A DNA stretch of 64,000 bases, from the NCBI GenBank assembly GCA_020853395.1, contig JADYYY010000010.1:516075-580074 (forward strand). The letters run 5' to 3'. Below, one piece after another: positions 50,052 through 63,532 of the stretch (the first letter of the stretch is position 1; the number at the start of each line of letters is the position of its first letter). The translations under genes and the position numbers were made by a program. The DNA is from Acidobacteriota bacterium. GTDB taxonomy: Bacteria > Acidobacteriota > Vicinamibacteria > Vicinamibacterales > SCN-69-37. The notes under the pieces were generated by a model, which was not told the DNA's origin, did not search any database, and saw only the letters and a program-made list of their open reading frames with translations.

Positions 50052-50426
50052 CTACTTCTTCGGGCGCTTGGCGCCGTATTTCGACCGCCCCTGCATGCGA
50101 CCCGCCACGCCCACCGCGTCGAGCGTGCCGCGCACGACGTGGTAGCGCACGCCCGGCAAATCCTTCACGCGGCCGCCCCGAATCAGGACCAGAGAGTGCT
50201 CCTGGAGGTTGTGGCCGACGCCGGGAATGTAGGTCGTCACCTCGATGCCGTTCGTCAGCCTCACACGCGCGACCTTGCGCAGCGCCGAGTTCGGCTTCTT
50301 CGGCGTCTGCGTGAAGACGCGCACGCAGACGCCGCGCTTCTGCGGACTGCTCTGCAGCGCCGGGCTCTTCGTCTTGCTCAGCACCTTCTCGCGCCCTTGG
50401 CGGACCAGTTGGCTAATCGTCGGCAC
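50052..50426 (-). CDS. rpsL: 30S ribosomal protein S12
   Basis: The GTG at 50426 (GGAG 6 nt upstream) gives (M)[14 protein letters not shown]...[19 protein letters not shown]. The ATG at 50453 in the track adds 9 atypical residues. Confidence 0.94.
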
Positions 50427-50665
50427 TAGACACTCCACCCCGAAATGGGCCACCCACGCGCCGCCCGCGGCGCGCTTCCTTCGTCCCCGGCCTAAGAGGC
50501 ACCCCTCGGCGCCCGGGACTCTCCCCTATTGCTGCGAGTCAGCATGGCAGCGAGCCGTGCGACACCATCGGCGTCGCGTCGCTGCGCGGAAACAACCAGG
50601 AAGCTGAAGCGCTTCGACTGGAGCGAGCCTAGATAGGGTGTCCCAGGCTCGAAAATAACCTTGCG

Positions 50666-50694
50666 AGATTAGCACGGTGGTTCCGGCGCGTCAA
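50666..50694 (-). promoter_or_regulatory. Candidate sigma70-type promoter of the rpsL (str) operon
   Basis: The minus strand reads TTGACG (50694-50689), 17-nt spacer, TAATCT (50671-50666). This implies a leader of about 230 nt before the rpsL GTG. Confidence 0.45.
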
Positions 50695-50700
50695 GGAACC

Positions 50701-50728
50701 GGCGGCCGAGTCTTTGCTCCCGGCCGCC
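50701..50728 (-). terminator. GC hairpin just downstream of the last tandem paralog (possible terminator, no clear U-tract)
   Basis: GGCGGCCG (50701-50708) pairs with CGGCCGCC (50721-50728) around a 12-nt loop. It starts about 19 nt after the stop at 50747 and abuts the -35 of the rpsL promoter candidate. Confidence 0.35.
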
Positions 50729-50746: not shown

Positions 50747-51982
50747 TCAGCGCGACCGCTCGTTGAGGCTGAAATACGAGGTGATCCGCCCGGCGGTCGC
50801 GTCGCGCACGAACGCCTTGATGGGGTCGAGCGCGCTCGCGCGCCCATCGGGGCCGAGCATCTCCCCGGCATAACCGAACCTCGCCGACACCGATCGGATG
50901 AACGTGCTCGACTCGTCGAGCGGCAGCGACGCGACGTTGTGCGCGAAATCGTCGAACAGGCCGTCCTGGAAGAGGTACTGCTCGACGTTGGAGACGTAGA
51001 AGGCCGACACCGTCGCGCCACGCTGGCGGAGGTACCGCCCGACGCCGCGCAGCGCCTTCGGCCCGGCGAAGTTGCCGACGACCGGCACGACCAGGTTCCG
51101 CTCCTGAAGGCCCCTGAGGAACCGGTAGTTCGCCTCGGAGGCGAGGTAGCTGCGCGGGCGCCCCTCCCAATCGGTCACGACCATCAGATCCTGATAGGTC
51201 GGGAAGTTGCCCGGCCCGCCGCGTCCGCGCCAGCCGAACGACGGCCCGGTGGAGTACCGCAGGCCGGGACCGTCCCAGAAGAACGCGAAGTAGATCGACT
51301 CGAGCTGATCGAGGTCCGTCGCCGACAGCGGCAAGCCGTGCTTCCTGAGCAGCACGTCGCGGATCCGCCGCGCGTTCTGGCGATAGAGGTCCTCGCTCGT
51401 CGCCACCGGCGCGAACGCGGCGAACAGCGCGTCGACGCTGGCCGACGCGGCGATACCCGGCGGCCGGGGCTTCGAGAAGAGCAGCGCCAGGAAGTCCGCG
51501 CGATCGGCGGACAGCTCGATGATGGCCTTGTACATCAGGTGCTCGAGCAGGTTGCCCCGCCGGATGTCCACGATGAAGGCCATGCGCGGCTCAGTCGCCA
51601 CGATGTAGGTGAAGTTCTGATCCGGAGCCACGCCCAGATAGACGCCGCCGCGCGGCACCAGCCGCTGGAGCGCCGGGATGACGTACTGATACGTGTGCTC
51701 GTTGGAGACGAGGTTCTCGGAGCGGAAGAAGCCGTTCGGCTCCGACAGCTCCGTCGACAACGTCCAGAACTGTTGATCGGTGAGCCGCGCCGGGAGGCGC
51801 GAGCGGGCCTCGGCGCGCGTCGCCTGCTGGACGGCCGGCGCATCCGCGCGCGCGATCCGCGTCCGGTCACCGACGCCGGACCGGTGTGCCCCGGCAGTGC
51901 CGGCCAGGCCGGCGAGCGCGGCGACGAGGACCGCGATCGGCCGCCACCACCTGACCACGAGCCGACGCGGTTCCCTCGGCAT
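50747..51982 (-). CDS. Tandem paralog E (fifth in transcription order) of an uncharacterised exported-protein family
   Basis: ATG at 51982, 3 nt after the paralog D stop. Signal-like N-terminus RWWRPIAVLVAALAGLAGTAGA. Family motifs LTDQQFW, SEPNGFFRSENLVSNE, VYLGVAPDQNFTYI, AFIVDIRRGNLLEHLMYKAIIELS, SYLASEANYRFL, NLVVPVVGNFAGPKALRGVG, AFYVSNVEQYL, SSTFIRS. C-terminus ...AGRITSY. Confidence 0.85.
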   Translation of the reverse strand: MPREPRRLVVRWWRPIAVLVAALAGLAGTAGAHRSGVGDRTRIARADAPAVQQATRAEARSRLPARLTDQQFWTLSTELSEPNGFFRSENLVSNEHTYQYVIPALQRLVPRGGVYLGVAPDQNFTYIVATEPRMAFIVDIRRGNLLEHLMYKAIIELSADRADFLALLFSKPRPPGIAASASVDALFAAFAPVATSEDLYRQNARRIRDVLLRKHGLPLSATDLDQLESIYFAFFWDGPGLRYSTGPSFGWRGRGGPGNFPTYQDLMVVTDWEGRPRSYLASEANYRFLRGLQERNLVVPVVGNFAGPKALRGVGRYLRQRGATVSAFYVSNVEQYLFQDGLFDDFAHNVASLPLDESSTFIRSVSARFGYAGEMLGPDGRASALDPIKAFVRDATAGRITSYFSLNERSR

Positions 51983-51985
51983 CGA

Positions 51986-53086
51986 CTACCGCACGGCGCC
52001 GCGGCTCGTCACGTCGGAATACACCGTGATGCGGCCGGCCTCGACCTGCTGCAGCAGATCCCGAATCGGGTCCATGACGTTGCGCTGCAGCGCCGACCGG
52101 ATGATCACGCTGCGCTCGTCGATGGGCAGCGCCCCCAGGTTCGCATAGAACAGCTCGGCGACGGCGTTGCGGAACAGGTACTGCTCCACGTTCGAGGTGT
52201 AGAACGCCGAGACCACCGCACCGCGGGCCGAGAGATAGGCCCCGATGGCCCGCAACGCCTTGGGGCCGGCGAAGTCGCCCACGACGGGGACGAGCAGATT
52301 CCGCGTCTGGAACGCCCGGAGCCACTGGTAGTTCGTCTCGGTCGCGAGGTACGAATGGCGCTCGCCGTTGAGATCGGTCGACGTCAGCATGTCGGCGTAC
52401 TCGGGCATGTTGCGCATCGCGAACCCGCCCATCGAGTACGTCAACGACGGGCCGTGCTCGAAGAACATCCGGTAAATGGTCGTGAGACCGCCGACGTCGG
52501 CCTCCGACAGGTCGAAGCCGTGCGTCTCGATCAGGTGCGCCAGGATCTGCTGCAGGTTCGCCGCGTACAGCTCCTCGCTCGGCACCGCCGGACGGTAGGC
52601 GTCCACCAACGCAACCACGGGCGTGCGGTCGTCGAGCCCGTCCGGCCGTGCTCTCGAGAACAGCCGCGACAGGGACTCCGCGCGGCTGGCCGACAGCTCG
52701 ATGATGGCCTTGTACATCAGGTGCTCGAGCAGGTTGCCGCGGCGGATGTCGACGATGAACGCGAGGCGCGGCTCGAGCGCAACGATGTAGGTGAAGTTCT
52801 GATCCGGCGCGACGCCGAGGTACACCCCCTGCCGTGGCATCGCGCGCAACGCAGGCACGACGTGCTGCAGCGCACGCTCGTTGCCGACGAGGTTCTCCGA
52901 CTGGAAATAGCCACCCGGCTCCGAGAGCTCGTCGACGAGCGCCCAGTACTCCTTGTCGCTGAGCGACTCGGGCAGGGCCTTGTTCTGGACGGCGCCCGAC
53001 GCCGGCAGCCACACCACCGAGGCCGCCAGCACCACCGCGACGGCCAGCCCGCGGCGACGACGATCCATGCGCACGGCGCGAATCAT
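51986..53086 (-). CDS. Tandem paralog D of the same family
   Basis: ATG at 53086. N-terminus DRRRRGLAVAVVLAASVVWLPASGA. Motifs SEPGGYFQSENLVGNE, VYLGVAPDQNFTYI, AFIVDIRRGNLLEHLMYKAIIELS, SYLATETNYQWL, NLLVPVVGDFAGPKALRAIG, AFYTSNVEQYL. C-terminus ...AGRITVY. Confidence 0.85.
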   Translation of the reverse strand: MIRAVRMDRRRRGLAVAVVLAASVVWLPASGAVQNKALPESLSDKEYWALVDELSEPGGYFQSENLVGNERALQHVVPALRAMPRQGVYLGVAPDQNFTYIVALEPRLAFIVDIRRGNLLEHLMYKAIIELSASRAESLSRLFSRARPDGLDDRTPVVALVDAYRPAVPSEELYAANLQQILAHLIETHGFDLSEADVGGLTTIYRMFFEHGPSLTYSMGGFAMRNMPEYADMLTSTDLNGERHSYLATETNYQWLRAFQTRNLLVPVVGDFAGPKALRAIGAYLSARGAVVSAFYTSNVEQYLFRNAVAELFYANLGALPIDERSVIIRSALQRNVMDPIRDLLQQVEAGRITVYSDVTSRGAVR

Positions 53087-53089
53087 CGC

Positions 53090-54202
53090 CTAACGTCCAT
53101 GACCGTGCGCGAGCACGTCCCGATACGACCGGACGCGGCCGGCGCTCAGGTCCGCGATCAGCCCCGGCATCGAGTCCAAGAGCGAGACGGCGCGCGATCC
53201 GCCGAACGAGGAGCAACTGTCGAAGCACGATCGGATGAACGTGCTGTGCGGCGCAAGCGGCATCGCCGCCACGTTGTTCATGAACGTCGTCCACGTGCCG
53301 TCCTGGAACAGATAGCGCTCGACGTTCGACGTGTAGAAGACGCTCACCACCCCTCCGTGACCGGCGACGTAGGCGCCAATCGCCCGCAACGCTTTCGGAC
53401 CGCCGAAGTTCCCGACGATCGGCACGATCGCGTTCCTCTGCTGGAGGTCCCTGAGCCGCTGGAACCGTTGCTCGTCGGCGAGATAGCCGCGCTGCTGGCC
53501 CGCCGCATCCGTCGCCACCTGGATCTCAGCGAACGTCGGATACCAGTTTCCGGACCGGCTGCTGACGAACCGGAGCTCCGGGCCAGCGGCAACGAACTGC
53601 TCGTAGACATGTCGAATCTCCGGCAGATCGTCCGCGTCGAGTGCAAACCCGTGGCCCTGCGTCAGGTTCTGCGCCACGGCCGCCATCGTTGCCTCGACGT
53701 ACTCGCGGTCGGGGCGCGCCTCGCCATAGGCACGCATCAACGACTCTACCGTGGAGCCGGGCCCCACGCCCGCCGGCACGCGCCTGCCGAACAGCCGCGA
53801 CAGGAACTCCGCGCGCGACGCGGACTGCTCGATGAGCGACTTGTAGAGCAGGTGGAGATGCAGGTTGCCACGCCGCACGTCCGTGATGAACGCCAGCGCC
53901 GGCCTGACCGCGATGATGTACGAGAAGTTCTGCTCGGGACCGACGCCGAGGTAGACGCCGCCGGGAGGAATCGTCTGGACGAGCTCGGGGATGACGGTCT
54001 GAAAGGTGTCCTCGTTCGACAGGAGGTTGTCGGAGTCGAAGTAGCCGTTGGGCTCGGAGAAGTCGGCGACCAGCCGCCAGAACTCCGAATCCGCCAGACG
54101 ATCGGGGAGCGTGGAGGGCGCTGCACGGGTGCCGAGCGACACCGACATCGACGCCGCACACAGCGCCAGCACGACACCGAGCAGCCACCGGCGTCTCGTC
54201 AT
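53090..54202 (-). CDS. Tandem paralog C of the same family
   Basis: ATG at 54202. N-terminus MTRRRWLLGVVLALCAASMSVSLG. Motifs SEPNGYFDSDNLLSNE, VYLGVGPEQNFSYI, AFITDVRRGNLHLHLLYKSL, GYLADEQRFQRL, NAIVPIVGNFGGPKALRAIG, VFYTSNVERYL, HSTFIRS. C-terminus ...AGRVRSY. Confidence 0.85.
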   Translation of the reverse strand: MTRRRWLLGVVLALCAASMSVSLGTRAAPSTLPDRLADSEFWRLVADFSEPNGYFDSDNLLSNEDTFQTVIPELVQTIPPGGVYLGVGPEQNFSYIIAVRPALAFITDVRRGNLHLHLLYKSLIEQSASRAEFLSRLFGRRVPAGVGPGSTVESLMRAYGEARPDREYVEATMAAVAQNLTQGHGFALDADDLPEIRHVYEQFVAAGPELRFVSSRSGNWYPTFAEIQVATDAAGQQRGYLADEQRFQRLRDLQQRNAIVPIVGNFGGPKALRAIGAYVAGHGGVVSVFYTSNVERYLFQDGTWTTFMNNVAAMPLAPHSTFIRSCFDSCSSFGGSRAVSLLDSMPGLIADLSAGRVRSYRDVLAHGHGR

Positions 54203-54214
54203 TGCCCGGCGCCC

Positions 54215-55387
54215 TCAGCGTGACGGCACGGCACATCCATGCGTCTCGGCCTGGATCCCCGCGAGCGACGACGTGAACATCGCGCCGCCGCGGCCACCGC
54301 CACCACGCACCGTCCGGACGAACGTGCTCGACGCCGTCGTCGGCATTGCCGCGACGTTGGCGCAGAACGCCGTCCACTTCCCGTCCTGCCGGAGGTACTG
54401 CTCCACGTTGGACAGGTAGAACGCGTCCACCGTGGCGCCGTGCTGGCGCGCGTACTGCCCCACGGAGCGCAACGCTTTGGACCCGGCGAAATCGCCCACG
54501 ACCGGCACGATGAGGTTGCGCATCTGGAGATCCTTCACGAAGGCGAAGTTCGCCTCGGTCGCGAGGTAGCTGCGCTGCTCACCGGCGCCGTCGTCCATGG
54601 CCATGAGATCGGCGTAGGTGGGCGTGCCCATTCCTCGTCCGCCGAATCCGCGCGGCCCCTGGCCCGTCAGGCGGTAATTCAGATCCGGACCGTCCGCGAA
54701 GAAGGCGGTCCGATAGACGTACTCGATGCCGGCGCGATCCTCGGCCGTCAAGGGCAGCCGCCGGCCCGTGGCGAGCCGTTCGAGCACATCGTTCAGCGTC
54801 CGGCGATACCGCGTTTCGCTGGCCGGCACGCCCTCGATCGCCGCGAACAGCGCTTCGACGCTCGCTCCTCGCGGCAGCGACGGCCGCTCACGCGAGAACA
54901 GCCGCGCCAGGAAGTCCGCGCGGTCGGCCGACAGCTCCATGAGCGCCTTGTACAGCAGATGCTCCTGCAGGTTGCCGCGGCGGATGTCCACGATGAACGC
55001 CATCCGGGGCCGCACGGCCGCGATGTACGTGAAGTTCTGCTCCGGGCCGACGCCGACGTAGAAGCCGCCCGGCTTCACCCGGCGAAGCAGGTCGGGAATG
55101 ACCGTCTGGAAGCGGCCCTCGTTCGACACGAAGTTGTCGGAGTGGAACGTCCCGCCTGGCTCGGAGAACGACGAGGACAAGGTCCAGAACTGCTGATCGG
55201 TCAGGTGCTCCGGCAGCTCCGCCGCCGTTGCAGCGATGCCAGCTCGGCCCAACATGGCCGGCCGCGCGGCCACCGCCCCGCCGATGGCGCAGAGCAGGAT
55301 CGCGGCGAACCACAGGCGGCGAAGGCGCCGGCGATCGTCAGACAGCCGGCGGCGCCCCACGACCATCAGTCCTGCGAACCGCCACAT
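54215..55387 (-). CDS. Tandem paralog B of the same family
   Basis: ATG at 55387 (the alternative ATG at 55366 gives a TGATG junction with paralog A). N-terminus RRLRRLWFAAILLCAIGGAVAARPA. Motifs LTDQQFW, SEPGGTFHSDNFVSNE, FYVGVGPEQNFTYI, AFIVDIRRGNLQEHLLYKAL, SYLATEANFAFV, NLIVPVVGDFAGSKALRSVG, AFYLSNVEQYL. Gly-rich tail GGGGRGG...AETHGC. The 703-aa track ORF is a run-on into paralog A out of frame. Confidence 0.85.
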   Translation of the reverse strand: MWRFAGLMVVGRRRLSDDRRRLRRLWFAAILLCAIGGAVAARPAMLGRAGIAATAAELPEHLTDQQFWTLSSSFSEPGGTFHSDNFVSNEGRFQTVIPDLLRRVKPGGFYVGVGPEQNFTYIAAVRPRMAFIVDIRRGNLQEHLLYKALMELSADRADFLARLFSRERPSLPRGASVEALFAAIEGVPASETRYRRTLNDVLERLATGRRLPLTAEDRAGIEYVYRTAFFADGPDLNYRLTGQGPRGFGGRGMGTPTYADLMAMDDGAGEQRSYLATEANFAFVKDLQMRNLIVPVVGDFAGSKALRSVGQYARQHGATVDAFYLSNVEQYLRQDGKWTAFCANVAAMPTTASSTFVRTVRGGGGRGGAMFTSSLAGIQAETHGCAVPSR

Positions 55388-56451
55388 ACGCGCGTTTCGG
55401 CCGCCATCGATCCCAGCCGGTTGGTCAACCCGCCGCCCCAGCCGAATCCGCCGCCGCCCGACCGGATGAACGTGCTCGACTCGTCGAGCGGCATCGTCGC
55501 CACGTTCGCGCAGAAGGTGCTCCAGATGCCGTCCTGGTTCAAGTACTGCTCGACGTTGGACAGGTAGAACGCCCCCACGACGGCGCCGTGTTCGCGAACG
55601 TACGCGCCGACGGCTCGCAGCGCTTTCGGCCCGCCGAAATTGCCGACGATCGGCACGACCAGGTTCCGCGCTTCGAGCGCGCGAAGGAAGGCGAAGGCTT
55701 CCTCGGACGCCAGATAGCTCGTCGCGGCGCCGGCATTGTCGGTCACGGTCATCAGCGCCGCGTACGTCGACATGCTGCTGCGGTTGCCGCCGCCGCTCGA
55801 CGAGTTGTAGGTGATCGAGGGGCCGAACCAGTAGAAGTTGCGATAGACGTACTCGATGCCGTCGAGATCCTCGGCCGAGAGCGGGAACCGGTGCGGCGAC
55901 TTCGTGAGATGGTTCCTGATGGCCTCGAGGTTCTCGCGATAGACCTCCTCGCCCGAGGTGGCCACTTCGGCGAACCGGCGCACGATCTCGGACACCGGCG
56001 CATCGTCGGCGAGCCCGTCGGGCCGCGGCTTCGTGAAGAGACGCGCGTAGAAGTCCGCGCGCGTCGTCGACATCTCGACGAGCGCCTTGTACATCAACTG
56101 GGTGTGGAGGTTGCCCCTCCGCACGTCGGTGATGAACGCCATCTTCGGCTTCAGCGCGACGATGTAGTTGAAGTTCTGCTCGGGGCCGACGCCGAGGTAG
56201 ACCGCGCCAGGCTTCACCCGCTGCAGAAGATCTGGGAGCACCGCCGGGTAGTAGATCTCGTTCGACAGCAGGTTGTCGGACCGGAAGTAGCCGTTCGGCT
56301 CCGACATCTGCTGCGAGAGCGTCCACAACTCCTGATCGGTGAGCCGCTCAGGGAGCGTGTCGGGCGCCGCACGCACCCGGACGGCCGCTGGTGCCAGCAC
56401 GACGAGCATGCACGCCGCAATGGCTGCGCCACGCACGCGGGTTGGAATCAT
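55366..56451 (-). CDS. Tandem paralog A (first in transcription order) of the same family
   Basis: ATG at 56451. N-terminus MIPTRVRGAAIAACMLVVLAPAAVRVRA. Motifs LTDQELW, SEPNGYFRSDNLLSNE, VYLGVGPEQNFNYI, AFITDVRRGNLHTQLMYKAL, SYLASEEAFAFL, NLVVPIVGNFGGPKALRAVG, AFYLSNVEQYL, SSTFIRS. Gly-rich tail GGGGFGWGGG...AETRVC. Confidence 0.85.
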   Translation of the reverse strand: MIPTRVRGAAIAACMLVVLAPAAVRVRAAPDTLPERLTDQELWTLSQQMSEPNGYFRSDNLLSNEIYYPAVLPDLLQRVKPGAVYLGVGPEQNFNYIVALKPKMAFITDVRRGNLHTQLMYKALVEMSTTRADFYARLFTKPRPDGLADDAPVSEIVRRFAEVATSGEEVYRENLEAIRNHLTKSPHRFPLSAEDLDGIEYVYRNFYWFGPSITYNSSSGGGNRSSMSTYAALMTVTDNAGAATSYLASEEAFAFLRALEARNLVVPIVGNFGGPKALRAVGAYVREHGAVVGAFYLSNVEQYLNQDGIWSTFCANVATMPLDESSTFIRSGGGGFGWGGGLTNRLGSMAAETRVCGGSQD

Positions 56452-56535
56452 AGGGAGTCTCGCGCTTCAGTCTACACCGGAGCCTCGAGCCGTGCGCGGC
56501 GCGCCGACGAGCAACGCGGTGGCGACCGGGCGCAC

Positions 56536-58977
56536 CTACCGGCCGAGCGTGCGACCGATCGTCCGCTGGATGCCGTCGCGAACCGCCTGGATCGACGCGG
56601 GCGATCCCTCGAACAGGTGCTCAGGATACTTGGCGTACTGGAGCATGTCGGCGTAGATCGGACCGCTCTGATAGAGGTTCAGCCCCATCCCGGCGAGATA
56701 CTGCAGCTTCAGGTTCCGGTCGCGATTGATCGCCGCGTCCTTGAGCCACGGCGCCAGGTCGCTGGCCGTGCCGGCGTAGTTCGAGAGCAGGTCCACGGCC
56801 GAGAAGATGCCGATCTCCGCCAGCGACTGCTTCACCTGCGCGAACTTCGGATCGTCGAGCCTGGCCTGCAGCTCGTCGACGTTGATCTTCGTCGGCTCGA
56901 CCTGGCCCATCAGCACGAGGTCGTAGCCCTGCCCGTTGTTCGTGTTCCCCCAGACGACGCCGTTGGGAAACGCCTCGAGGAAAGTGCCGATCTCGCTCTT
57001 CACCGCCGCGGGATTGCTCTCGTAGAGCTGCACGAACAGCGTCACGACGCCGCCGGGATTCAGATGCCGCTTCACGATCTCGAAGAACTCCCGCGTGTAG
57101 AGCGTCGCCGCCCCCTTCACCCACGGGTCGAGCGGGTCCGACGTGATCGCGTCGAACATCTGGTCGGTCGTCAGCAGGAAGTGGCGGGCATCGTCGATGT
57201 GGACCGTGACCTTGGGGTTGTCCACGACGTTGTAATTGTGCTCGCCGAAGTACTTCGAGACGGACGCCGGCACCAGCGGCTCGATCTCGGCGATCGTCAT
57301 GTGCTCGACGAGCGGGCCGATCGACACCGCGCCGGCCGTGACGCCGGCGCCGCAGCCGATGACGAGGGCGTTCTTCGGCGCCTTCGGAATCAGGTGCGTG
57401 AAGTGGCCGAGCATCCGCTGCAGCCGCATGTCCTGAGGCTCGCTCGAGGCCTGCACCTTGCCGGCGTTGTGGTAGTTGCGGACGCCGGTCGACGTCTGGG
57501 ACACGGCGACGAACGCATTCATCCCTTCGCCGACGTAGATGATGTCGGTGAGCCCGACCCAGGTCGCGGCGTAGCGGCCGTACGCGACGAGGATGCCGGG
57601 CACGTCCGGCATCGAACGCACGACGAGGCCGGCGGCACCGGTGGCGGCGACGAGCAGCACGGTCATCACCCATCGCTGCGTCCTCGACCCGACCTGCTCG
57701 GTAATCACGGGGGCGAGCAGCATCAGCCCGGACAGGGCCGAGACGATAATCAGGATCTGCTGGGCTTCGGGCGTGCCGAAGTAGACGACCATCACCAGCC
57801 CCGACACGAGCGATCCGACGATGGCCCCCACGGTATTGGCCGCGTACACGCCGCCGACGAGCCTGCCGGCATCCTGCCCAGGCGCGGCGACCGCAGCGAG
57901 CGCAAGCGGAAAGCTGGCGCCCCAGAGGATCGCGCCAGGCAGCACGACCCAGAGGCATCTCACCATGTCGAGCTGGAAGTTGAACCACGGGTCCGACGCA
58001 ATCGACGGATTGATGGGCCAATACGGCAGCGAGCGCATCAGCATGTATGCCGCCCAGCCCATGGCGCCGCAGAGCAGGAGCTGGCACCAGCCGAGCGCCG
58101 CGCGCGGCCGTGCCGTGCTGCGCGCGATCGCCGACCCCAGGCTGCTGCCGATGCCGAGGCCGAACAGGAACACGCCGAGAATCAGCGAGAAGGCATAGAC
58201 CGTCGCCCCGAACAGCAGCGACAGCAAGCGCGTCCACAGGACCTCGGACGCGAGCGCCGTCATGCCCGACAGCGCAATCGCCAGATAGACGACGCCCGAG
58301 CCTTCGGCCCGGACCACGCCGCCGGCCGGTTCCGGCTCGGGCTCGTGCGAGGTCACGCGCGTGATGGCGAGCGCCGCCACCGCCACCGCCACGTTGAGCG
58401 CCGCGGCGACGAACGTCGTGACGGCGCTGTCGTACACGCGCAGCAGATAGAAGCCGGCGCCGAGGCTGCCGAGCACGGCGCCCGCGATGTTGCCTCCGTA
58501 GAAGAACCCGAGCCAGGACACGCCTTCGGGCGTCGTTCGGACCCAGCGGGCGATGGCCGGCAGCGTCGCGCCCATCATCAGCGTCGGCGGCAGCAGGCAC
58601 AACGCGGCGACGATCGCGCGCACGGCCACGTGGCCGCCACCGATCGCCGCGTAGATGCCGTTGACGAGCGGCATGCCGAACAGCAGGAGCAATCCCATCG
58701 CGCCGATGCCGAGCTCGAGGTAGGCATAGACGCGAAGAGGATGGTGCCGCGGATCGATGTACCGAGGCAGGACGAAGCTGCCGAGGCACATGCCGCCCAT
58801 GAACGTCCCGAGCAGCACGCCCAGCGAGATCGCCGAGGACCCGATGACCAGCTGCAGGAGCTGGAACCAGACGATCTCGTAGATCAGGGCCGCGCACCCG
58901 CTGCCCACGAACAGCAGGAGAATCGCCGGGAAGTAGGGGTTGGCCGTGCTCAGGGGTGAGGCCGATCGGTCGTTCAT
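56536..58977 (-). CDS. Fused polytopic membrane (MFS-like) / spermidine-synthase-like (aminopropyltransferase fold) protein
   Basis: 813 aa. The N-terminal ~480 aa hold many hydrophobic helices (FPAILLLFVGSGCAALIYEIVWFQLL, GFFYGGNIAGAVLGSLGAGFYLL, LWTRLLSLLFGATVYAFSLILGVFLFGLGIG). The C-terminal domain has ALVIGCGAGVTAGA, MTIAEIEPLV, VHIDDARHFL, FDAITSDPLDPWVKGAATLYTREFF and LNPGGVV, the motif order of spermidine synthases. A helical tail follows. Confidence 0.85.
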   Translation of the reverse strand: MNDRSASPLSTANPYFPAILLLFVGSGCAALIYEIVWFQLLQLVIGSSAISLGVLLGTFMGGMCLGSFVLPRYIDPRHHPLRVYAYLELGIGAMGLLLLFGMPLVNGIYAAIGGGHVAVRAIVAALCLLPPTLMMGATLPAIARWVRTTPEGVSWLGFFYGGNIAGAVLGSLGAGFYLLRVYDSAVTTFVAAALNVAVAVAALAITRVTSHEPEPEPAGGVVRAEGSGVVYLAIALSGMTALASEVLWTRLLSLLFGATVYAFSLILGVFLFGLGIGSSLGSAIARSTARPRAALGWCQLLLCGAMGWAAYMLMRSLPYWPINPSIASDPWFNFQLDMVRCLWVVLPGAILWGASFPLALAAVAAPGQDAGRLVGGVYAANTVGAIVGSLVSGLVMVVYFGTPEAQQILIIVSALSGLMLLAPVITEQVGSRTQRWVMTVLLVAATGAAGLVVRSMPDVPGILVAYGRYAATWVGLTDIIYVGEGMNAFVAVSQTSTGVRNYHNAGKVQASSEPQDMRLQRMLGHFTHLIPKAPKNALVIGCGAGVTAGAVSIGPLVEHMTIAEIEPLVPASVSKYFGEHNYNVVDNPKVTVHIDDARHFLLTTDQMFDAITSDPLDPWVKGAATLYTREFFEIVKRHLNPGGVVTLFVQLYESNPAAVKSEIGTFLEAFPNGVVWGNTNNGQGYDLVLMGQVEPTKINVDELQARLDDPKFAQVKQSLAEIGIFSAVDLLSNYAGTASDLAPWLKDAAINRDRNLKLQYLAGMGLNLYQSGPIYADMLQYAKYPEHLFEGSPASIQAVRDGIQRTIGRTLGR

Positions 58978-59189
58978 AAGCTGGGGGATCCTATCTCAAA
59001 GCGACAGCGGCACGGGCCTTACTACGACAGGACGGGCGCTGGCGTTCACCGGGACCGGCGAACGGGCCGGCACCGCGTCTAGTCTACACAGCGAAGATGA
59101 CCGGATCGACGGCACGCGCGCGACCGCGCCGCGTCCTGAACACACGAACCAACGTTCGCCGCCGGTCGCAAGCGGCTCTGCTGTCCGCG

Positions 59190-59226
59190 CCAAACACAAC
59201 GGGCGCGCCGGTGTCCCGGCGCGCCC
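59190..59226 (-). terminator. Rho-independent-type terminator downstream of rpoC
   Basis: The minus-strand RNA has GGGCGCGCCGG-gaca-CCGGCGCGCCC (perfect 11-bp stem), followed by GUUGUGUUUGG, about 90 nt after the rpoC stop. Confidence 0.55.
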
Positions 59227-59314
59227 GTCGCTGACGCTCACTCGCGCGATCCGCCGATCCTCACTCGCCAGCGCAACCGGCCATCCTCGAATGGCCGATC
59301 GGTCCGGCGCGCCG

Positions 59315-63532
<4,218 letters not shown>

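Follow-up and report, generated by a model that had tools for sequence, protein, structure and literature searches.

A fused membrane/spermidine-synthase-like gene and five exported DUF7790 paralogs form a conserved cluster upstream of rpsL in Vicinamibacterales, possibly an envelope module

Between rpoC and rpsL in a 64,000-nucleotide stretch of DNA from an Acidobacteriota bacterium (hereafter the window; contig JADYYY010000010.1 of assembly GCA_020853395.1) lies a block of six genes, in which a gene for a polytopic membrane protein with a C-terminal spermidine-synthase-like (SpeE-like) domain, here called gene 1, is followed by five tandem paralogs of the DUF7790 family, D1 to D5. We found that the pairing of the fusion gene with DUF7790 genes recurs in related genomes in two different gene orders and that the block is native to its genome. 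Our preferred reading, put forward tentatively, is that Vicinamibacterales inherit this block vertically as an envelope module native to them, probably extracytoplasmic and amine-modifying. Among soil bacteria, Vicinamibacterales rank with the most abundant groups and with those least brought into culture. Few of their loci outside the housekeeping genes are as conserved as this cluster, which lies in the neighbourhood of ribosomal and RNA-polymerase genes, and it gives two catalogued but unstudied families, the fused major facilitator superfamily (MFS)/spermidine synthases and DUF7790, a joint testable hypothesis, namely that they cooperate outside the cytoplasm.

Layout of the six-gene block

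The 8.9-kb interval between rpoC and rpsL consists of six co-oriented open reading frames (ORFs) on the minus strand, whose coordinates were checked; rpsG and fusA lie beyond rpsL on the same strand and were assigned with NCBIfam equivalog models. Gene 1 and D1 are separated by 84 nucleotides, the stop codon of D1 overlaps the start codon of D2 by 1 nucleotide (TGATG), and the remaining gaps are 12, 3 and 3 nucleotides. The ORFs, their flanking genes and the spacings agree with what had been reported in the initial annotation of the window. The features are as follows, with the evidence for each in brackets.

56536-58977, minus strand: gene 1, fused membrane/SpeE-like protein of 813 residues (Pfam, NCBIfam, AlphaFold2 model)
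57616-58941, minus strand: membrane domain of gene 1, residues 13-454 (DSSP helices, hhalign, lysine and arginine counts)
56539-57555, minus strand: aminopropyltransferase-fold domain and helical tail of gene 1, residues 475-813 (Foldseek, residue alignment)
55366-56451, minus strand: DUF7790 paralog D1, 361 residues, with signal peptide (PF25046, 98 bits)
54215-55366, minus strand: DUF7790 paralog D2, 383 residues, with its ATG overlapping the D1 stop (PF25046, alignment)
53090-54202, minus strand: DUF7790 paralog D3, 370 residues (PF25046, alignment)
51986-53086, minus strand: DUF7790 paralog D4, 366 residues (PF25046, alignment)
50747-51982, minus strand: DUF7790 paralog D5, 411 residues (PF25046, AlphaFold2 model, Foldseek match to 6ULO)
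59315-63532, minus strand: rpoC (NCBIfam equivalog model)
GTG start at 50426, minus strand: rpsL (NCBIfam equivalog model)

Long ORFs of 1094-1402 residues are also present on the plus strand opposite the real genes (50939-54223, 55228-58959 and 58940-63148). The GC content at third codon positions (GC3) marks the minus-strand frames as coding, and the plus-strand ORFs are artefacts of the high GC content, not genes.

Gene 1 joins a transporter-like membrane part to a SpeE-like domain

Gene 1 belongs to the "fused MFS/spermidine synthase" family NF037959 of NCBIfam, which it matches with 115 bits against a cut-off of 40, and residues 519-648 match Spermine_synth of Pfam (PF01564) with 74.5 bits against a gathering score of 22.9. 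It stays below every SpeE equivalog cut-off, with 72.5 of the 249.6 bits required for TIGR00417, 84.7 of 260 for PRK00811 and 131.7 of 472 for PRK03612. In the AlphaFold2 model (predicted local distance difference test, pLDDT, of 82 and predicted TM-score, pTM, of 0.82), DSSP assigns 13 long helices to residues 13-454; a short helix and the two-domain aminopropyltransferase fold come after them. Profiles and model together bear out the architecture that had been proposed for gene 1, a polytopic membrane part followed by a C-terminal spermidine-synthase-like domain. Orthologs are 72-91 % identical.

Helices 1-6 are homologous to helices 7-12 (hhalign probability 94 %, E = 1.4e-7), which suggests that the membrane part is a 6+6 unit as in MFS transporters with an extra 13th helix. 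The match to the MFS_1 profile of Pfam is weak and misses its threshold (17.6 bits against 33.4, E = 0.002), and the full-length model returned only SpeE matches in Foldseek and none for the membrane domain. Among the closest known systems are NF037959 and the membrane-anchored SpeE type of PRK03612, exemplified by Rv2601 of M. tuberculosis. Residues 224-646 of gene 1 align with positions 16-414 of PRK03612, that is, over helices 7-13 and the catalytic domain. A point of difference is the duplication of the six-helix unit in gene 1. The searchable literature describes no function or topology for members of NF037959 and of the PRK03612 type.

The loops of the membrane part are strongly asymmetric in charge, with 14 lysine and arginine residues on the N-terminal side and 3 on the opposite side. 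The same bias, 12-25 against 2-6 residues, was found in 24 homologs, including a paralog with 33 % identity. Because the positive-inside rule sets the N terminus in the cytoplasm and the chain is predicted to cross the membrane 13 times, the SpeE-like domain would emerge in the periplasm, in the same compartment as the DUF7790 paralogs. This predicted extracytoplasmic placement is a new point that was absent from the initial annotation.

A second fusion paralog, of 1083 residues and 33 % identity, has a C-terminal TPR region (L059, 14832-18083; also L085-L094; such labels denote loci of the comparison). Its lysine and arginine bias resembles that of gene 1, and it has no DUF7790 neighbour.

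The SpeE-like domain retains adenosyl-ligand residues and has lost others

The catalytic domain of gene 1 matches SpeE of T. thermophilus (1UIR) in Foldseek with E = 1e-9 and TMt 0.69, and it superposes on the spermidine synthases of T. thermophilus, plant, human and E. coli with TM-scores of about 0.6-0.7. With the triamine/agmatine aminopropyltransferase of T. thermophilus (1UIR/3ANX) it shares both the N-terminal beta domain and the Rossmann domain (TMt 0.6-0.7). We used 1UIR as the reference for a residue alignment. E564 aligns with the ribose-binding Glu and residues 595-597 with Asp-Asp-Ala, and both are invariant in the orthologs of gene 1. The D-x-x-D-P motif after strand 4 (D614-P-L-D617-P618) and the L-Y-T segment also align with T. 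thermophilus SpeE and are likewise invariant in the orthologs. The second motif-IV Asp is replaced by His or Asn in fusion paralogs.

Unlike SpeE, the domain of gene 1 follows a stretch of 13 transmembrane helices and has a predicted periplasmic location, and its active site differs in two features. The glycine loop reads GCGAG where 1UIR has GGGEG (canonical GGG(D/E)G), and the acid of this loop is missing in all fusion paralogs examined, which have G-x-G-[AST]-G. The segment QDMRLQR aligns with DEYIYHE, so that the Tyr of the YHE/YQE motif becomes Leu519 and, after the conserved Gln520, the Glu becomes Arg521; these residues are invariant in the orthologs. In the structures of the human and T. 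maritima enzymes, the acidic residue of GGG(D/E)G contacts the aminopropyl amine of decarboxylated S-adenosylmethionine (dcSAM). As judged from the aligned residues, the domain resembles a working enzyme with an adenosyl ligand, and its donor or its chemistry may differ from those of a canonical spermidine synthase. Annotation of gene 1 as a spermidine synthase is unsafe because its glycine loop is GCGAG instead of GGG(D/E)G, and it is not justified. The more general label "aminopropyltransferase-like" given in the initial annotation is insecure as well: it holds for the fold and the Pfam match and does not extend to the GGG(D/E)G loop, the Tyr or the SpeE equivalog cut-offs.

These features bear on a serious rival explanation, in which the public annotation is correct: gene 1 is a cytoplasm-facing, membrane-anchored polyamine aminopropyltransferase combined with an MFS-type polyamine exporter, and the DUF7790 genes encode periplasmic proteins of unrelated function, neighbours by common descent within one lineage. 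The Spermine_synth and NF037959 matches and the partial PRK03612 match would be expected from such a protein, as would the full SpeE fold with its D-x-x-D-P and adenosyl-binding residues. dcSAM is a cytoplasmic metabolite, and DUF7790 genes often occur without the fusion gene. However, the odd number of helices together with the strong lysine/arginine bias puts the domain outside the cytoplasm, GCGAG stands for GGG(D/E)G and Leu for the active-site Tyr, and the scores to SpeE equivalogs are far under their cut-offs. The adjacency of the fusion gene to DUF7790 also survives in a second gene order, with overlapping start and stop codons, as described below. We regard a cytoplasmic polyamine system as rather unlikely, while taking it seriously.

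D1 to D5 are old, exported paralogs with a predicted Rossmann-like fold

All five paralogs match DUF7790 of Pfam (PF25046) with 97-120 bits against a gathering score of 23, whereas they miss NF047518, the model for LIC_10091 (LipL40), with 44-64 bits against a cut-off of 350. D2 to D5 share 47-53 % identity with D1, pairs compared by tblastn give 44-59 %, and the range for the five paralogs overall is 45-58 %; the alignment has about 100 invariant columns. Because of this mutual identity and these invariant positions, none of the five looks decayed. The core order D1-D3-D5 recurs in relatives, and D5 is the type with the clearest one-to-one orthologs, which outscore the other paralogs by about 150 bits. 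D1 to D5 are old paralogs.

At the N terminus of each paralog, a stretch of positive charge precedes a hydrophobic stretch and a cleavage site of the A-x-A type; no lipobox is conserved. Export by the twin-arginine (Tat) pathway was considered and rejected: two consecutive arginines are present in 4 of the 5 paralogs of the window and in only 50 of 92 D5 orthologs, and the motif in 32 of 92. Since the twin arginines are not conserved among orthologs and the lipobox is lacking, export by the Sec pathway is likely. The family is large, with 4078 clusters at 50 % identity, and some members (P0335, P0336 and P0386) carry C-terminal CarboxypepD_reg or DUF4850 domains; the fusion partners of DUF7790 are extracytoplasmic beta-sandwich domains only. 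The signal peptides, the CarboxypepD_reg fusions and the description of LipL40 as a putative outer-membrane lipoprotein (PMC2935396) all argue that DUF7790 proteins are extracytoplasmic.

The AlphaFold2 model of D5 (pLDDT 87) matches the uncharacterised Leptospira protein 6ULO in Foldseek with E = 5e-14. 6ULO is the best match of the paralogs by both structure and sequence, at about 18 % identity, and the two groups share the motifs SNE, GVG-EQN, the Asp of strand 2, GN and Y-x-SN-E-x-Y; both are predicted to be extracytoplasmic. A homolog search seeded with 6ULO fragments gave just 8 proteins. In contrast to LipL40 (LIC10091), the paralogs of the window have signal peptides without a lipobox and fall far under the equivalog cut-off, and they are arranged in tandem next to the SpeE-like fusion; the neighbours of the Leptospira gene are FGE-sulfatase and M14 peptidase genes instead. 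LipL40 has been tested solely in host-ligand binding assays (PMC2889836, PMC2935396). Searchable literature on DUF7790, LIC10091, the fused MFS/spermidine synthases and Rv2601 yielded nothing on function. The initial description of five exported paralogs without a nameable function holds, and they can now be placed in DUF7790, as distant relatives of LipL40 that resemble 6ULO.

The next structural matches of D5 in the PDB and a viral library are Dam/N4C/N6A DNA methyltransferases (E about 1e-3, TM 0.3-0.44), and Dam-type exocyclic-amino methyltransferases such as that of E. coli are the best matches outside the family. In the model, the order of elements agrees with theirs, with a glycine-rich loop after strand 1, an acid after strand 2, a helical insert and a motif after strand 4. 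Unlike Dam, the DUF7790 proteins have no FxGxG or DPPY motif and no sequence-level relationship to the methyltransferases, and they are secreted, without a plausible DNA substrate. The invariant residues of DUF7790 are GVGPEQN after strand 1, an Asp (D139) after strand 2, G-(N/D)-F-x-G after strand 4 and Y-x-SNVE-x-Y after strand 5. In the model, they sit where a Rossmann-type enzyme would bind its ligand.

These observations can be set against an uptake or sensing system, in which a transporter carries the SpeE-like domain as a ligand-binding module without catalysis, and different substrates are fed to it by the DUF7790 proteins acting as periplasmic binding or processing proteins. The transporter-like 6+6 domain and the prediction of all parts in one compartment would suit such a system. 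The pattern of DUF7790 genes, with copy numbers of 1-10 and many orphan copies elsewhere in the same genomes, would resemble that of solute-binding protein families, whose members are amplified, dispersed through the genome and in many cases orphans; genes for secreted peptidases and esterases and TonB-receptor-like genes are frequent neighbours. However, the adenosyl-binding and motif-IV residues are invariant among orthologs, which favours a catalytic domain over a binding module in decay, and the DUF7790 fold is methyltransferase-like and not of the Venus-flytrap type. In addition, use of binding proteins is not known for MFS transporters. We consider an uptake or sensing system improbable.

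The fusion gene and DUF7790 stay together in two gene orders

To assess how far the pairing extends, we collected 80 loci via DUF7790 from species-representative genomes and contigs. The fusion gene adjoins DUF7790 in 26 of them, and two gene orders were found. In the first, which is that of the window, the fusion gene is followed by 1-10 DUF7790 genes and then by rpsL-rpsG-fusA, with rpsL included in 13 loci. In the second, seen in at least 6 loci, the gene just upstream of the fusion gene is a DUF7790 gene, which in some loci overlaps the fusion gene or has a small SWIB gene between the two; another DUF7790 gene follows a few kb downstream on the other strand. The pairing has survived rearrangement, because the fusion proteins of the second order are still 65-68 % identical to that of the window. 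When loci were selected via the fusion protein instead, 4-5 DUF7790 genes followed the fusion gene in all three, with rpsL downstream in 2 and rpoB-rpoC 5 kb upstream in 1. The closest relatives are labelled Vicinamibacterales. The association is specific to this lineage and to the orthologs of gene 1; unlike the TPR-bearing paralog clade, the gene-1 ortholog group has a dedicated DUF7790 partnership.

The rpoC side of the cluster varies among relatives, where genes for VWA-like proteins, an M28 peptidase, DinB or GNAT proteins may stand, or a 5-kb stretch with other genes, and the constant anchor of the cluster is rpsL and not rpoC. The block had been described as wedged between rpoC and rpsL; rpsL is indeed its downstream neighbour, but the rpoC side holds for only some relatives. 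Two further suggestions fared similarly. Co-occurrence of the paralog family with the fusion gene is seen in both gene orders and in 3 of 3 fusion-selected loci, set against many solitary DUF7790 loci, and the proposal of one functional module gains real support from the conserved adjacency in relatives but is limited by the lineage-specific nature of the association.

Such an adjacency could also be the product of an interval upstream of rpsL that is prone to rearrangement, with independent neighbours forming no functional unit and the tandem array resulting from simple gene amplification. The variable content on the rpoC side, the 84-nucleotide gap between gene 1 and D1 and the interruption of the array by other genes in some relatives, for example by an esterase-like gene, are in line with this explanation. 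It does not readily account for adjacency in two gene orders and in every locus of a fusion ortholog seen, for genes that are tightly packed or overlapping, or for the conserved order of the paralogs, and we give it a low probability.

The composition of the block is that of its surroundings. GC content is about 0.66-0.70 throughout the window, with no compositional break or drop across the six-gene region, and the six genes have a GC3 of 0.87-0.93, which equals that of the ribosomal genes; their codon usage is native. No tRNA and no flanking direct repeats were found around the block and no integrase or transposase among the ORFs of the region, where the only repeats are the five paralog copies themselves (period 1.1-1.2 kb, 60-76 % DNA identity). 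The block is native, and it is not a recent mobile insertion, the latter as had been proposed from the lack of mobile-element marks. A recently acquired genomic island or mobile insertion, which the break in the rpoC-rpsL adjacency common to many phyla might suggest, is effectively refuted by the native GC and GC3, the lack of an integrase, tRNA or flanking repeats in the region and the many relatives that carry the cluster at rpsL.

A proposed extracytoplasmic, amine-modifying module

In the envelope module that we tentatively favour, the six genes would be transcribed from a promoter of their own directly before gene 1. The transporter-like 12-helix (6+6) domain would be embedded in the membrane, and the 13th helix would carry a complete SpeE-fold domain to the periplasmic side. 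This domain would still handle an adenosyl ligand through its G-x-G-x-G loop, the Glu with which strand 2 ends and Asp-Asp-Ala, all of which it keeps along with the first motif-IV acid; it has lost the loop acid and the tyrosine that characterise spermidine synthases working with dcSAM. Because the adenosyl-binding residues are kept and the loop acid and Tyr of the dcSAM type are not, the most likely activity would be alkylation of an amine-bearing substrate outside the cytoplasm, in which the group transferred could be aminopropyl, methyl or a similar one. One of the two reactants, donor or acceptor, would travel through the membrane domain of gene 1 itself. The five Sec-exported DUF7790 proteins, with their Rossmann/amino-methyltransferase-like fold, would probably be substrate-specific partner enzymes or adaptors in the same compartment. 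Of the elements of this proposal, the gene layout, family assignments, folds, conserved adjacency, native composition and conserved promoter elements are shown by the data, whereas the membrane topology and catalytic competence of the products, their chemistry and any partnership between them, physical or functional, are predictions.

Several points weigh against such a module. Neither S-adenosylmethionine (SAM) nor dcSAM is known to be present in the periplasm, and a periplasmic adenosyl-dependent transferase would for this reason need an unproven supply of donor. The topology of gene 1 is a prediction, made from the positive-inside rule and a modelled structure only. In about two thirds of the DUF7790 loci sampled, the fusion gene is missing from the neighbourhood; the Leptospira locus, with its FGE-sulfatase and M14 peptidase genes, has no SpeE-like gene, and in ten metagenome loci of the TPR-bearing fusion clade no DUF7790 gene adjoins the fusion. 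Because all positive loci belong to one order-level lineage, shared ancestry explains part of the synteny. As for the DUF7790 fold, the structural matches of the model to methyltransferases are weak (see above), and no Pfam methyltransferase matched DUF7790 even at E = 10. We also considered, and rejected, an origin of DUF7790 by divergence from a copy of the SpeE-like domain, since the two show no profile similarity (hhalign probability 0.8 %).

A possible answer to the question of donor supply would be self-supply, in which the MFS-like domain carries SAM or dcSAM through the inner membrane to the periplasmic SpeE-like domain, and perhaps to the DUF7790 enzymes too, for the modification of amine-bearing envelope or extracellular molecules. 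We regard this as a long shot. If true, it would mean SAM-type group-transfer chemistry outside the cytoplasm and would explain why SpeE-like domains are frequently fused behind odd numbers (7 or 13) of transmembrane helices. Should an intact adenosyl-binding SpeE fold indeed face the periplasm as predicted, this would raise the general question of how periplasmic group-transfer enzymes obtain their donors, and it would call for caution with automatic annotation of such fusions as spermidine synthases in metabolic reconstructions from soil metagenomes.

Candidate transcription signals bracket the cluster

Four candidate signals were located around the block.

59187-59237, minus strand: GC-rich hairpin, then UUGUGUUUG, after the rpoC stop (-46.4 kcal/mol, z = -6.5, 0 of 200 shuffles as stable)
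58988-58993, minus strand: -10-like hexamer TAGGAT, 10 nucleotides before the gene-1 ATG (conserved in 14 loci)
50701-50728, minus strand: hairpin after D5 (-26.2 kcal/mol, z = -2.4)
50666-50694, minus strand: rpsL promoter, outside the module, with TTGACG, a 17-nucleotide spacer and TGc-TAATCT (extended -10) (kept in 12 loci)

The hairpin after rpoC is probably an intrinsic terminator and the upstream boundary of the module; a consensus terminator scan misses it, as the T-run is short. The hairpin after D5 is a weak terminator candidate for the downstream boundary. Both hairpins had been noted before as insulating the block, and the comparison with shuffled sequences upholds the first as real and strong but leaves the second weaker.

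We compared 225 nucleotides upstream of the fusion gene from 14 loci. Nothing could be aligned except TA(g)nAT, which is invariant 10-12 nucleotides before the ATG of the fusion gene in all 14, while the upstream DNA and genes otherwise differ. No Shine-Dalgarno sequence was found between the -10 hexamer and the ATG of gene 1. These data suggest a promoter dedicated to gene 1 and an mRNA with no leader or hardly any, and because the conserved -10 lies 10 nucleotides upstream, the transcript most likely starts at the ATG. A start somewhere in 58978-59190 had been anticipated; it is most likely right at the ATG and probably not elsewhere in that interval. A promoter in the 84-nucleotide gap between gene 1 and D1 was considered and rejected, since the sole consensus match overlaps the start codon of D1; the gap folds no better than shuffles. 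Neither the gene-1 leader nor the rest of the region had an Rfam match with E < 0.8.

The candidate rpsL promoter, TTGACG-17-TAATCT, is present as reported earlier. Its consensus in relatives is TTGAC(C/G)-17-TGnTAAnCT, and a generic consensus scan missed the copy in the window. The block is bracketed by a start signal of its own and an independent start signal for rpsL, as had been suspected.

Recurrent neighbours and the rpsL leader

Several kinds of gene recur near the cluster in relatives. One to three acidobacterial VWA-like genes (TIGR03436, about 610-680 residues) precede the fusion gene in L001, L002, L003, L005, L035, L043 and L062. They also lie beside solitary DUF7790 genes in L028, L033 and L055, and none is present in the window. 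Because these genes form a large acidobacterial paralog family, their adjacency is uninformative. An esterase-like gene of 550 residues on the opposite strand, absent from the window, interrupts or follows the DUF7790 array in L002, L012, L019, L054, L062, L082 and L083. In loci of the second gene order (L025, L029, L040, L048 and L059), a 170-residue GNAT of the diamine/thialysine acetyltransferase (SSAT) family is encoded three genes upstream of the DUF7790/fusion pair; it matches PDB entries with E = 1e-19 to 1e-37 and is followed by two exported proteins annotated without function, one of them with immunoglobulin (Ig)-like domains. This GNAT is the only recurrent neighbour that points, weakly, to diamines, and the neighbouring esterase-like, M28 and Ig-like proteins name no pathway.

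The leader of rpsL, about 200 nucleotides long (50427-50660 in the window, minus strand), is highly conserved and contains long invariant blocks, among them GGACACCCUAUCUAGG and CAGCAAUAGGGGA. It was compared in L001, L002, L004, L005, L012, L035, L043, L054, L056, L068, L082 and L084. The leader has no Rfam match; RNAalifold predicts several helices, with compensatory changes in 18 of 48 pairs, and the leader is a candidate for a new ribosomal-protein (str operon) leader RNA in Vicinamibacterales.

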